From: Eledone cirrhosa
Taxonomy: Eukaryota
Direction of reading: 5' to 3'
Length of the DNA stretch: 64,000 bases
NCBI GenBank assembly: GCA_964016885.1
Contig: OZ024751.1
Coordinates: forward strand, 35,898,001-35,962,000
Below, piece after piece: positions 7,526 to 59,112 of the stretch. Within the stretch, counting starts at the first letter, position 1. Each line of letters begins with the position of its first letter. Both the position numbers and the translations under genes were made by a program. A model generated the notes under the pieces. It worked only from the letters and a program-made list of their open reading frames with translations, was not told the origin of the DNA and made no database searches.

Positions 7526-10284
7526 AAATATGGTTTTATAAATATAGGTTCCATTTGTTAATATCGTATTTTTACTCCAATTACATGTTGAGTGCTTTAT
7601 ATCAGTTATAAAAAATATTTGCTTGTTGTATCCCAACAATTTAAATAGAACTTCTACATATATATATATATATATATATATATATATATAACGACGGCCT
7701 ATGCCTCCGTTAATTTATCGTGATATATATATATATATATATATATATATATATATATATATATATATATATATATATATATATATATATATATATATAT
7801 ATATATACATATATGCATGTATATATATATACATATATGCATGTATATATATATATATGCATGTCTATATGTATATAAATATATATATGCATGTATATAT
7901 ATATGTACACACACATATATATATGCATGTATATTTATACATGTACACACACACATATATATATATATATATATATATATATTATCCTTACAGTATCTTT
8001 TTCAAACGTTAGCCAGGCGCAGATATTCCAACTCTACTCCATAGTTCCATAGTTTGCAAAGTATCTTTGATTATCTCCTGAAATGAATATTAATTTCAAC
8101 ATTATATATCTTATATAATTATACACCTCCCTGTTCCCATATATATATATATATAATATATATATATATATATATATATATTATATATATATATATATAT
8201 ATATATATATATATATATGCAGAATTACAGAATTACGTATACATATGTGTGTGCTTGTGTGGGCAAGCCAGTATGTGTTTGTAAATGTGTACGTGTCTGC
8301 TTGTCTACCTATGTATGTATGTATGTATGTATGTATGTATGTATGTATGTATGTATGTATGTATGTATGTATGTATGTATGTATGTATGTATGTATATAT
8401 GTATGTATGTATGTATGTATGTATATATGAATGTGTGTATGTGTGTATGTATGAATGTGTGTATGTATGTATGGATGTATGTATGCATGTATGTATATAT
8501 ATGTATGTATGTATGTGTGTGTGTGTGTGTGTGTATATATATATTTCTATGTATGTTTATATGTATGTATTTCTATGTATTTGTGTATATATCTTTCTAT
8601 CTATATTTATCTGTATCAATATGTACAATAATACGTATATTGATTTCCAGAAGTCGCAGCCACTAAGGTCTTCCTTTGAGTTTTGAATATTATCGTCAAC
8701 GTCATTTGATTGTAAACTGATTCTTTGATCCAATTATATGAAATGTCATGCGATACCCCCACTCTCCCTCTAATCGGGACTACAACATTCTCATAGTATG
8801 AAATTATTTAGAATTCACAATATATTCATCTACTGCAGGAAAATCTCTGTTTTACATAATTTTATATCTGCAAATTCTTAAATTCGATCCTGGAAAACTG
8901 TGTTTCAAACCAATTTGTTTTCCGTATTTAATAAGAGGTCACACCATATCGATGTTATTCCAGTCGTGGTTAAGTGAAGTCCCCCTCTTTCAACCTTTTT
9001 TAAAGTAGTGTAGGAGCATTGCTTAGTGATTAGAGAATTGGATTCGTAATCGTGGGCTTGAGAGGTGCATGCTCGGACCGGGAGATATCGTTATGTCCTT
9101 GAGCAACACAATTTATTTTACGTTGCTCCTTTCTGCTAGTTGCGAGCGGTAGATAGTATAGCAATGGAAAGACAAATAGAAACATTGTTTCCTTTTTTGG
9201 TTCGATTGGACGAGTTTCACTCCATTCGGTAATGCCAATGAGGTCTAGGATATTTTCAATCGATTAAAAAAACAAAACAACACAAAAACAACAACAACTA
9301 GCAAGGTATTCTGTCTTGACCGTGAGATAAATATCGTATAAGACAATGCAGCATTTGATAACACCGTTTTCACACAACTCTACGTTATAGGATAAACATC
9401 CTGTACGTCACGGCAACGTTTGATAAACCCGTCTTTACACAACTCTACGTTATATGATAAATATCTTGTGCGGCACGCATCATATAACATAGAGCTGTGT
9501 AAACCCGTCTTTACACATCTCTATGTTATACGATGCTGAACATAATGTTGTAAGACCTGGTGTTGTTTACTCTGTAGTGTTGTAAGACATTGTGGTGAGA
9601 AACTCTCAGGAGAGCACGACAGTAGAAAAGTCTTCAGAGAAGAAACCCTGCCTCAAGCAAGTATTTAGGCCCTTAACTTCTGATATATAAGACGTAGTAA
9701 TGTTTGCTATAAGACGGAAACACAAACACATCGGTGATATATTCATGTCTTGTGAAACACTCTGATTCTGGAGCGCCATCAGAAATTACATACAATAGGC
9801 TTAAATACTTTCAGACATGTTTCGTGTAAAAGAATAATTTCTGAAATAATGAGGTAAGTGAGAGGTGAATGTCATGCAATTACCGAACAATTGATAATTA
9901 GTATCAATAATACTGTTGATTATTCATAAGAGACCAACTGACTTAGTGGATAAGATTGCCGATACACAATATATTGGAGTTGTATTCTCCCTGGAGGGCT
10001 TTCCATTGTGTCACGAGACACAATTTCAACGGCCTGTCAAGAAAACGATTTCTTAACAATCATGAACAGCTAATTGTTATATATGATAATAATAACTGCA
10101 TCATTTGCTGTTTCATTAACGAAAGCTAGTCTTTAGTATAATTATACAAGCTAACAGGTAGACGTATTGAAGGGCAATATAGTGGACGTAACATTTCACA
10201 ATACCTAAGTAGACATCTGTGTCTACACAAGAAGAACAAGAAGACTCTTGAAAGTAGGGAAACTATGCGAGGAAGCTTATATGT

Positions 10285-11125
10285 ATTTCTAATTTAGGCA
10301 TAAGGCCAGCAAATTTGGAGTAAGGGTAACATTGATTAAATCAACCCTAGTAATTGTGTGTTACTTTATTTTATACACCTTTAGAAGAATGAGAGATAAA
10401 GTTGACCATGGTGGGATTGAAAATGAGAATGTAAAGAACCAGGATATAAAGAATACGGTAATGGCATGTTATTCAATTCTATCAATTCAATTCTGCCAAT
10501 CTTCGACACCAAAGAAGTTAATAATAAAGAAACTTCCTTTTTTTTTTATAAACTAATGTAAATAGTAATATTAGACACTGCACATATATTATGAGAAGTA
10601 CTCTCAATAAAATAGAAACAACAACAACAGCAACAACAGCAACAACAGCAACACCGAAAATAACACACCTCGGTAATGCAGTGAAATAAGATTAATAAGT
10701 ATTTTTAATTTTGGCACACGGCCAGCAATTTGTAAGAAAGGGGAAAGTTGATTAAATCAACCCCAGTGAGTTACTGGTACTTTATTTTAACAACCCCTTA
10801 AGGATGAAAGACAGAGCTAACACCAGCAGGATTTGAACCCAGAACGTAAAGCGCCGTAGCTCTATGCTGCAATACATGATGTCCGACGCTCTACCGATTC
10901 TACCAATCAACTGCTCTAAACTGTTTCTACATTTGGCACAAGGTCAGAAATTTAAAAGGGAGGAGTAAAGTCGATTATACCGGCCCCGGTACTTTACTGG
11001 TACTTTATTTTATCGACCTTAGAAGCATGAAAGTCAAAGCTACTCTCGGTGGGATTTGAACTCCTAAATTTTAACTAAATAGCAACAACATTTGTCTCTA
11101 ACGATCCTGTCAATTCTCTGCCATT
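10285..11125 (-). mobile_element. Cluster of three diverged copies of the same SINE
   Basis: ggcacaaggccagcaa..tactggtactttattttatcgacc..ggatttgaac pattern at ~10285-10500, 10700-10915 and 10922-11125. Confidence 0.75.
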
Positions 11126-58400: not shown

Positions 58401-58914
58401 AATTTAATAATATATTTGAATGCTCTTATTTTGTAGTAATTATCTTCACTAAATTAGCTTTTGCTTGAAGTAAAAATTGGCACAAACCTCGTCCTAAAAT
58501 AGTTCGTATCTAATGACCTTCGTTTGTTTCACTGTATATTATTAATAATTTGCATATTTAAGATAAACACAAATGAGACATTTCGTTATTTCGTTATATT
58601 TTGCCAATTTACAAACTTTTAGAAATAATTGTTTTAAAACAATCACATTTAAAAGTGATTATGAGAAAAATATTCAAATAACCAGAAATAATTATATAAA
58701 TACTAAATAGCACCACGTATAAGTTTCCCTATATTTAGATTTTTAAAATTCGAAAAATTTGGCTTGCAGTTTTTTAATTTAGCGTTTTAAGCACTGAGGA
58801 ATCAGTTTAAATATTTAGGGTAGGTTCTAGTACTGTGTTATTGTGGTAATGAGTAATGTACACACTTAACTGTATATATATATATATATATATATATATA
58901 TATATATATATATA

Positions 58915-59112
58915 GGAACAAGTAAGACCCCGACGGCTGAGCTCAAGCCGTTTCGACGGCTAATTCTGGACAGAGTCCAGAATTAGCCGTCGAAACGGCT
59001 TGAGCTCAGCCGTCGGGGTCTTACTTGTTCCTATTACCCACTTTACTACCCTAAGTATTGAGTACTTTGGTGCGTTATGGTCCACCTGGTTCCTTACCAC
59101 ATTTCCTTCGTT
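58915..59112 (+). mobile_element. Fold-back element, family A, copy 4 (longest hairpin)
   Basis: Perfect ~56-bp arms with loop cagag; GAAA-cggct tgagctc agccg-TC-ggggtc (3' half of an HHR); tail; (TA)n flanks. Confidence 0.9.

Follow-up and report, generated by a model that had tools for sequence, protein, structure and literature searches.

A covarying bulged hairpin lies just 3′ of insertion ends in Penelope-like retroelements and may set where their reverse transcription starts

The stretch of DNA analyzed here, referred to as the window, covers 64,000 nucleotides of the Eledone cirrhosa genome (assembly GCA_964016885.1, contig OZ024751.1, forward-strand positions 35,898,001 to 35,962,000), and positions below are counted from its first letter. 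It carries families of stubs inserted in (TA)n that resemble Penelope-like elements in having a hammerhead, an inverted arm, and a tail. EN+ Penelope-like elements encode a telomerase-like reverse transcriptase and a GIY-YIG endonuclease in a single ORF, and their pseudo-LTRs are arranged in tandem or inverted, with a 5′-truncated inverted copy. This arrangement is present among these families, as fold-backs in A, C, D, F, and I and as tandem unit ends in E and I. A putative core of the type I hammerhead (CTGA-N-GA..GAAA with stems), recognized from the sequence, occurs in families A, B, C, and G and its 3′ half in D and F; none was seen in E, H, and I, and Rfam has no hammerhead match in the window. 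The tail is one-sided, with 63-108 nt from the start of the hairpin to (TA)n in 12 window copies. None of the 184 window ORFs has a Pfam match, and because the window retains no Hydra reading frame, we can only infer the clade membership of its families. The best window tblastn matches to a Hydra protein are weak (E 0.02-0.03), one of them lying at 54721-54792 (minus), the place expected before the hammerhead. Unit junctions carry two hairpins, numbered 1 and 2 in the following list of features.

7574-7595, plus: hairpin 1, family A; fold-back ~7212-7657, putative hammerhead core 7470, arm end 4 nt before the hairpin
14044-14069, minus: hairpin 1, family F; element 13998-14158, arm end 5 nt before
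15349-15370, plus: hairpin 1, family A
16101-16121, plus: hairpin 1, family D; fold-back ~15975-16163, arm end 4 nt before
16458-16480, plus: hairpin 1, family E
16547-16567, plus: candidate hairpin 2, family E, 89 nt after hairpin 1; model E 7.6
17180-17209, minus: family H hairpin with G-C instead of A-T at the base; first upper pair T.T
17638-17659, plus: hairpin 1, second copy of family D; T.G at pair 4
21864-21906, plus: tail-only copy of family C, matching 24911-24953 and beginning just 3′ of the hairpin
23565-23592, minus: hairpin 1, family B; putative hammerhead core 23704 (minus)
24870-24896, plus: hairpin 1, family C; fold-back ~24535-24951, putative hammerhead core 24763, arm end 7 nt before
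32965-32990, plus: hairpin 1, family F; element 32848-33036
38200-38226, plus: hairpin 1, family B; putative hammerhead core 38089
40877-40902, plus: hairpin 1, family F; element 40757-40948
41535-41551, plus: hairpin Y (hairpin 2), first unit of family I; A.C base variant
41961-42021, plus: hairpin X (hairpin 1), family I, with a long insert; model E 0.24, outside the training set
42126-42142, plus: hairpin Y, second unit of family I; the inverted arm from near 41036 ends 5 nt before
53884-53985, plus: putative hammerhead core with a long stem II, family G, read from the sequence, with no Rfam match
54046-54081, plus: hairpin 1, family G, a multi-copy family; tail to 54141
59040-59065, plus: hairpin 1, family F; element 58912-59111, T.G at pair 4

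A preliminary description of this DNA had named eleven main sites and a GCTC..GAGCGC version at 17180-17209 (minus), all of which agree with these positions within 1-2 nt. Among its partial versions, 41535 proved to be a real variant with a short upper stem and A.C at the base, and 54850, which no RCTC precedes, was dropped. The copies at 16547, 17638, 41961, 42126, and 59040 are additional to that description; the one at 16547-16567 is weak, with a 2 bp upper stem and no RC after it. The family H copy has neither an inverted arm nor a clear hammerhead. The hairpin is common across families, as had been proposed, but not universal: it is missing from three of the eight (TA)n-flanked fold-back families of the window, J (15482-15900 and 38353-38484), K (54178-54426), and L (25171-25357), of which J additionally has a hammerhead-like core and a tail.

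The hairpin is built from RCTC, an upper stem of 3-4 bp with unconstrained sequence, then a loop, a 2-nt bulge with T first, and GAGY-RC. Exact matches to RCTC-N3-30-GAGYRC number 14 in the window; 12 are sites of the preliminary description, and the remaining two, at 9602 and 9759, lie outside any element. The bare consensus count of 13 is not above chance, against an expectation of 6.8-7.2 and a maximum of 15-16 from 200 local shuffles. The interior had been noted as variable and often paired, and its pairing falls into one register behind the 2-nt 3′ bulge (nine families, one copy each). The summed upper-stem run is 27 at a bulge of 2 and 2-6 at bulge sizes 0, 1, 3, and 4, a register that 0 of 20,000 shuffles reached, and the first bulge base is T in 9/9 families. 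Alignment A1 contained four family F copies and the unverified site 9071, and its covariation therefore overstates independence; a one-per-family MAFFT alignment was out of register, so pairs were counted per family from anchors. Over 23 hairpins, including copies from a second genome, G001, paired positions change together: pairs 2-4 are invariant, pair 1 is A-T in 8, G-C in 13, and A.C in 2, and pair 5 is paired in 22, with three pair types. All 23 have the T-N bulge, the T of which was built into the G001 search pattern. These data show a fixed bulged hairpin structure with covariation across families. No match in Rfam 15 reaches the gathering score in the window, and none lies over the hairpins in E-value mode.

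Plain homology of the tails, or a chance match of the motif, could be suspected from the bare count and from the loose pattern in G001, which is not enriched there (710 vs 680 in the control). The tails of different families, however, cannot be aligned (z ≤3.6 vs 12-16 within families), while the upper stem varies on both sides. Moreover, the register is missing from chance matches: a 3-bp upper stem is formed by 7/7 pattern matches in G001 vs 4/114 in a metagenome, 3/101 among other genome matches, and 0/120 in viral sequences. The 114 metagenome loci, obtained by scanning half the collection for the motif plus (TA)6, hold no recognizable element and served as a negative control; three viral scans gave chance matches only. 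Plain homology or chance, to which we assign next to no probability, is refuted as the sole cause, and common descent of the motif belongs to the best explanation.

Outside the window, the hairpin occurs independently in coral and sea-cucumber elements, in three of six published Hydra-clade consensus sequences (PMC8557442 File S7): Hydra-2_Amil, Hydra-1_Ajap (twice), and Hydra-2_Ajap. In the same file, Hydra-1_Obim has no hairpin, Hydra-1_Amil only part of one, and Hydra-1_Crog a variant. Read by eye, with matches split by line breaks being missed, T-N-GAGCAC matches form the hairpin in 4/4 cases in the Hydra file vs 0/12 in the Naiad and Chlamys files. In G001, to which the genome-wide counts refer, hairpins adjoin Hydra-clade reading frames, with ORFs contiguous with hammerhead and hairpin. 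The order in families L436 and L422 is reading-frame end, hammerhead, start B, hairpin 1, start A, hairpin 2, and next reading frame. Hydra-clade units are short, under 3 kb, and have a C-terminal endonuclease; the L436 unit is ~2.56 kb, with its ORF in two pieces at 2514-416 (minus). Among 68 homologs of the G001 protein of at least 600 aa, RWK, DKT, and CxCX5C are found in 48, 66, and 67, respectively. Homolog P0068 matches RVT_1 at E 9e-6, short of the curated cut-off; the endonuclease of the G001 carriers, with no Pfam match, is assigned from motifs, and no solved structure matches the element protein by sequence. With model R1, for which 16 window copies were the training set, G001 gave no match at E 0.001 and 100 of the 114 metagenome loci gave six weak ones; the model is too narrow to cover the G-C variant.

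Collectively, the hairpin is a conserved feature of Penelope-like retroelements, shown in Hydra-clade elements. The Hydra clade of C-terminal EN+ elements (Craig et al. 2021, PMC8557442) has in common with the carriers its (TA)n targets, a hammerhead close to the 3′ end, a 5′-truncated inverted copy, and a one-sided tail, and the G001 carriers encode proteins with the RWK, DKT, and CxCX5C marks of the clade. The differences are that tails here are ~60-110 nt rather than the published 30-40 bp, that window copies lack a reading frame, and that their base pair is mostly A-T, whereas other Hydra hairpins have G-C. The Hydra section of PMC8557442 is silent on a hairpin, and the word does not occur in its available main text. 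No description of this hairpin was found in the literature covered, outside which lie Repbase Hydra families and bioRxiv supplements that could hold one. Two other assignments were rejected. Naiad and Chlamys elements have no canonical hammerheads and an N-terminal endonuclease, but most carriers here have putative hammerhead cores. Non-LTR retrozymes have a hammerhead in every head-to-tail unit, but window copies are single or fold-back, and the sole tandem, family I, lacks a hammerhead. Nor is the motif a second hammerhead stem III, as no GAA precedes it.

The preliminary description expected the signal to mark where the inverted copy ends. In the window, 11 element ends are followed by a hairpin 4-10 nt further 3′ (the offset at 15349 was read by eye). 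The second terminal repeat of family E (16978-17054), in direct orientation, ends 10 nt before the equivalent position. In family I, both element ends lie 5 nt before successive hairpins, the direct end at 42546 being 5 nt before the equivalent of hairpin X. In G001, 22 ends do not reach the end of the tail; of these, 18 lie 1-6 nt 5′ of hairpin 1 (five families). The tail itself ends 4 nt before hairpin 2 in three copies of L436 and 5-7 nt before it in four copies of L422. The two-hairpin rule is seen directly in four families (I, weakly E, and two in G001) and in Hydra-1_Ajap. The fixed offsets, seen both in the window and independently in G001, and the covariation support the shared cis signal that had been proposed. 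Among the matches listed, reads and contigs on family G revealed neither a step in depth, nor a pile-up of ends, nor a strand-switch joint immediately 5′ of the hairpin.

Ends in both the window and G001 sit in (TA)n targets, and window ends use TA microhomology. It could therefore be argued that the hairpins help the RNA, uncapped after hammerhead cutting, to be translated or stabilized, with ends clustering merely via AT-rich linkers; hairpin 2 does end close before the ATG (20 nt in L436, 27 nt in Hydra-1_Ajap). Yet other TA-rich spots in the same G001 repeats are unused, with 18/22 internal ends within a 6-nt window, and the hairpins are kept in short noncoding stubs and in family I. We regard this explanation as highly improbable.

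How the inverted arm is made is indicated by head-to-head pairs. In five of seven such pairs in G001, the inverted arm has sequence missing from the direct copy, and in family A the inverted arm at 15161-15313 extends ~125 nt further upstream than the direct copy. In those five G001 pairs, the direct cDNA lacks part of what the inverted arm contains and so was not its template. In one G001 pair, the arms have no overlap, and therefore both ends were likely primed separately on RNA. Non-overlapping pairs rule out fold-back self-priming as the sole source of the arm; it is still possible for fully overlapping palindromes, the two arms of which have copy-specific variants in common.

Paired hairpins a few bases past the insertion ends therefore likely tell the reverse transcriptase where to start at each end. 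We consider it probable that the hairpin, 3-10 nt 3′ of insertion ends and twice per junction, is bound by the reverse transcriptase-endonuclease and fixes the cDNA start 5′ of each copy. In this model, the hairpin would fold in the element RNA and be bound by the element's own (predicted) protein, which would cut both strands of the (TA)n target. One DNA end would prime at A, copying tail, hairpin 1, and body, and the other at B, copying the body only to give the inverted arm, each priming being assisted by TA microhomology; the two cDNAs would finally be joined in head-to-head orientation. On this view, the tail corresponds to everything between B and A and so contains hairpin 1, never hairpin 2. 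Hairpin-set starts would explain the long-puzzling one-sided tail. Whether each hairpin recruits one subunit of a dimeric enzyme, so that both (TA)n ends are primed from a single RNA, we judge to be evenly balanced.

The closest biochemical precedent is PAc, a Poseidon-clade element of Anolis, whose protein cuts both strands and starts at two internal RNA sites bounding the tail (Frangieh et al. 2024, PMC11167929). This protein is modeled as a dimer, and it requires RNA to +172 although the named start is +111-118; it starts internally on uncut RNA, and its product size is independent of the RNA 3′ end (PMC11167929). Under the proposed model, the two systems share two starts with the tail between them, an AT-rich target cut and extended on both strands, a hammerhead upstream that is dispensable for insertion, and a need for RNA 3′ of the named start. 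In PAc, copying starts inside an AC-rich stem-loop within the reading frame, whereas here the signal is duplicated and in a noncoding leader. The PAc template, read by eye, lacks the RCTC..T-N-GAGY motif, and no cross-family motif was defined there.

All positional results would fit equally if the hairpin directed RNA cleavage or 3′-end formation upstream, by the element protein or a host nuclease, with reverse transcription starting at true 3′ ends as in R2/LINE. In G001, hairpin 1 is also the starting point of some direct copies and of one full-length unit (query positions 159 and 164), which are possible products of a nearby cut. Against this, the Poseidon protein starts internally on uncut RNA (PMC11167929), and the end offsets shift with TA microhomology (3-10 nt), which suits priming over a fixed cut; we hold this explanation to be unlikely. 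Less likely still is a DNA signal for the GIY-YIG endonuclease, acting in cDNA or the donor copy to trim or resolve an intermediate. The Drosophila virilis Penelope tail is required for endonuclease recognition of plasmid DNA (as cited in the available text of PMC11167929), PMC8557442, in the part available, attributes the tail to endonuclease resolution, and nonstandard pairs at the family level (three G.T vs two A.C) do not settle the folding strand. However, hairpin 2 is situated past the end of the tail and hairpin 1 past that of the arm, so the cDNA there would always have to be made overlong and then trimmed; two primings account more simply for non-overlapping head-to-head pairs; and DNA folding is weak (-0.3 to -3.4 kcal/mol in 13/14). 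Among the roles left by the preliminary description (reverse transcriptase or endonuclease recognition, promoter, processing), the evidence favors a signal read in RNA, because the DNA inserted at the tail end stops short of hairpin 2 and never includes it.

LINE-1 twin priming likewise has two target ends that prime two cDNAs, joined head to head. There, the second priming site depends on chance complementarity and is variable, whereas here both sites are at a fixed distance from a conserved structure. Bulged or protein-bound stems set where copying starts or stops in hepadnavirus epsilon, telomerase template boundary and anchor elements, and the R2 3′ UTR; this likeness is an analogy of function alone, with no sequence likeness claimed.

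If the proposed model is correct, integration of Penelope-like elements follows a defined cis code that has been conserved among those of cnidarians, echinoderms, and Eledone cirrhosa and that accounts for tail and inverted arm together. Starting just 5′ of a bound stem may then hold for Penelope-like elements generally and may model template positioning in the sister group of telomerase. How these elements form an inverted arm and a one-sided tail is treated as an open question in the available text of PMC8557442 and PMC3846280, and the in vitro study placed protein binding only within a 172-nt region (PMC11167929). A 20-30 nt covarying motif at a fixed offset to both insertion ends permits exact mutants. 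It also offers a marker for Hydra-type stubs without a reading frame and is a candidate for the minimal signal that a telomerase-related enzyme needs for RNA-templated insertion. What appears to be new here is the shared bulged hairpin, its occurrence in pairs at junctions, and tail ends 4-7 nt before hairpin 2. The preliminary description had not recognized the T-N bulge or the presence of a second hairpin, and it had made no connection to Hydra-clade Penelope-like elements.

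The hairpin follows one order in all carrier families: RCTC, upper stem, loop, upper stem, a 2-nt bulge, GAGY and usually RC. Its interior had been described as variable and often paired, and so it is: in nine families (one copy each), the upper stem pairs solely in the 2-nt-bulge register, with a summed run of 27 versus 2–6 in the others, a score reached by none of 20,000 shuffles even with the best register picked post hoc. RNAalifold returned the identical structure unprompted. T is the first bulge base in 9/9 families; the second is variable in family G (54075, G to T at 71% of depth in sequencing run X1). 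Wobble pairs fail to fix the folding strand. In the alignment of window copies, 93.5% of the cells are paired and 26 are altered on both sides (0/500 shuffles), figures that overstate independence because the alignment includes related copies and one unverified site. Of the 14 exact RCTC-N-GAGYRC matches in the window, 12 are sites named in the preliminary description; the "partial version" at 54850 is withdrawn, as there is no hairpin at that site. The window is 31.7% G+C with abundant (TA)n, and the bare consensus count (13 versus ~7 expected) is within chance, while a descriptor requiring at least three upper pairs finds 15 sites versus 3.65 expected (maximum 8 over 100 shuffles). Tails cannot be aligned between families, and hence the motif does not reflect uniform divergence of homologous tails, the outcome that would have spoken against a shared signal. 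A further candidate at 9071–9106 (+) fits the structure well, having a 4-bp upper stem and a TT bulge; hammerhead, arm and (TA)n are absent nearby.

The carriers are short (TA)n insertions consisting of an inverted 5′-truncated arm, then a direct copy, the hairpin and a tail, a layout known for Penelope-like insertions from the accessible parts of PMC8557442, PMC3846280 and PMC4209133. In families A, B, C and G, a hammerhead core precedes the hairpin by 25–65 nt on the same strand; the hammerhead 3′ half was found in D and F, and a hammerhead was looked for in E, H and I and none was seen. The window has the look of animal DNA, and its repeat types tentatively suggest a cephalopod; one hint in that direction is a hammerhead-like stretch at 48514 (-), which is similar to the hammerhead published for Hydra-1_oBim. 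Within the 64-kb window no Penelope reading frame is left, and the resemblance of its families to the Hydra clade lies in layout and motif, not in protein. Three of the eight (TA)n-flanked fold-back families in the window (J, K and L) are without the hairpin. Family J (15482–15900 and 38353–38484) has an arm, a tail and a hammerhead-like core reading CAGAAGA instead of CTGAAGA, lacks the RCTC hairpin, which weighs against a general signal, and may use a different one. One J copy carries an ATCC..GGAT stem at the hairpin's usual place. The family K palindrome (54142–54426) has a left-side tail of ~22 nt with only a GAGCWC half-motif, which reads GAGCAC in the majority of copies. All four F copies (14075–14158, 32848–32959, 40757–40869 and 58912–59034) fold back at most ~25 nt upstream of the hammerhead GAAAC, which suggests that joining favours a particular point in stem II. 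Another element, at 54450–54810 (-), has a Hydra-type hammerhead (core at 54523) and stops at (TA)n ~40 nt past the cleavage site with its tail absent; upstream in it, 54721–54792 weakly matches the last residues of the protein (E 0.033).

A shared cis signal had been proposed to fix where the inverted copy ends, and the positions of the ends bear this out. Eleven window ends sit 4–10 nt before a hairpin, all at TA-like patches, and one of them (family E) is in direct orientation, so that the site marks a genuine terminus besides being an inversion point. In G001, a second genome record set, five terminal repeats were used as queries and non-self matches of at least 90% identity were kept, lower ones being omitted: 18/32 stop 1–6 nt before hairpin 1, the hairpin in the tail, 10/32 extend as far as the end of the tail or of the query, and 4/32 stop elsewhere. 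The shortest offsets are due to run-on into TA. Counting against the signal, for family G (2,233 contigs of run X1 and 2,284 reads of run X8) neither an end pile nor a fold-back joint before the hairpin occurs among the rows listed for four runs; depth continues across the tail, contig depth being a poor measure, and a TA patch immediately precedes the hairpin in most copies. Direct copies at L436:2632 (-) and L420:10683 in G001, and Hydra-1_Ajap, start at or within hairpin 1, as if a bound hairpin stalls copying. A tail-only window copy (21864–21906) starts immediately 3′ of the hairpin.

A model trained on 16 window copies picked out a previously unseen hairpin at 41961 (E 0.24); the direct end of the fold-back/tandem element of family I corresponds to a point 5 nt before this hairpin, and its inverted arm stops 5 nt short of the following one (42126). 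The twin-hairpin prediction from this element was confirmed in G001. In the full-length L436 unit, hairpin 1 stands at the start, 66 nt separate it from hairpin 2, and the ATG comes 20 nt after that; tails of its family stop 4 nt before hairpin 2 (n=3 copies). At L422, the reading frame follows a hairpin 2, and the junction retains 17 nt of tail; tails of this family stop 5–7 nt before hairpin 2 (n=4 copies). Placed before a reading frame, the hairpin might be thought to serve translation, which we regard as very improbable. In family E, a weak second hairpin follows the first at a distance of 89 nt, a spacing matched by the tails of A, B and C, which end at 81–89 nt.

Among the six Hydra-clade consensus sequences in PMC8557442 File S7, Hydra-2_Amil and Hydra-2_Ajap carry a complete hairpin ~45 nt past the hammerhead, Hydra-1_Ajap starts 2 nt before a hairpin with a second ~61 nt on, Hydra-1_Crog has variant hairpins at both places, Hydra-1_Amil has a partial hairpin and Hydra-1_Obim has none. 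The base pair is G-C in every hairpin-bearing consensus. By eye, the 16 T-N-GAGCAC matches in the supplement comprise 4/4 full hairpins in the Hydra file and 0/12 in Naiad and Chlamys. A genome contig scan requiring a hammerhead core and T-N-GAGYACT, with RCTC and stem left free, gave 108 loci, 7 from G001; GCTC, a 3–4 bp upper stem and downstream (TA)n occur in 7/7 of these versus 3/101 elsewhere, and in 4/114 metagenome and 0/120 viral matches as chance controls. A tighter pattern gave 48 matches in G001 versus 14 with the reversed control, with a 3-bp upper stem in 9/13 having an upstream hammerhead and in 4/29 without hammerhead or (TA)n. The window-trained model recovered no hairpin in G001 at E 0.001. 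At L124 and L436, one contiguous piece runs from the reading frame through hammerhead, hairpin and tail to (TA)n, and homologs of the protein bear the Hydra marks RWK, DKT and CxCX5C. G001 is filed as bacterial; it is rich in animal-type retroelement DNA with (TA)n-flanked repeats, likely host DNA within a species-representative bin. It has 31 matches to a Hydra-clade protein (L124, L128, L141, L179, L182, L205 and L206), whose best named homolog is from coral.

The structure, conservation, offsets and hairpin pairing are demonstrated, as is, for G001, the connection with reading frames of the Hydra clade; RNA folding, protein binding and priming are inferred. Hairpin 2 lies outside the tail end and hairpin 1 outside the arm end. 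Each is thus absent from the cDNA whose start it marks, which argues for RNA; recognition of DNA by an endonuclease is accordingly placed among the improbable explanations. In 5/7 G001 head-to-head pairs, the inverted arm carries sequence absent from the direct copy (in C61, the arm covers query 104–154 and the direct copy 164–214), as it does at 15161–15430 in the window, and for this reason separate priming is invoked. Cleavage of the RNA at the same points could likewise be considered for the ends, and we judge it unlikely. We think it probable that the hairpins act on RNA, protein-bound, and mark separately primed cDNA starts at both ends: the hairpin would fold in the element RNA, the element protein would bind it, and priming would be fixed at the starts so marked. 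LINE-1 twin priming, hepadnavirus epsilon and telomerase elements offer analogies. The separate-priming reading agrees with data for PAc, a Poseidon-clade Penelope-like element of Anolis, for which the accessible part of PMC11167929 describes cutting and extension of both strands, two internal starts flanking the tail, a requirement for RNA far 3′ of the named start, and a dimer model. By eye, the PAc template at +125 to +164 forms a CUC/GAG-core stem starting 7 nt past the +118 start and ending within the +172 minimum; it is possibly the equivalent of hairpin 2.

The preliminary description knew no named motif of this kind, and none was found in the accessible literature or in Rfam, no family of which matched the hairpin; the literature search, outside which most subscription papers and Repbase entries lay, returned no description of hairpin, bulge or pairing. 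The hairpin is unmentioned in the accessible Hydra section of PMC8557442, and undescribed in the accessible parts of a 2026 retrozyme preprint (10.64898/2026.07.22.740005), PMC7229834 and PMC13282606. The insertion layout was already known, and the hairpin adds a new cis element to a known class, opening the origin of the Penelope tail to direct testing.

Other repeats in the window are as follows.
3216–3401, 16332–16434, 17357–17543, 44091–44275, 45724–45903 and 47024–47193: ~185-nt dispersed repeat, 87–98% alike
17886–18445: tandem array, 80-nt unit, 98–99% identity
33316–36105: long array, 18-nt partly palindromic unit

The dispersed repeat sits within family E and within the direct repeat 46772–47358. 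A 253-aa open frame at 28944–29702 (+), unrelated to the hairpin motif, weakly matches zf-RVT (E 6e-4) and is likely a LINE end.
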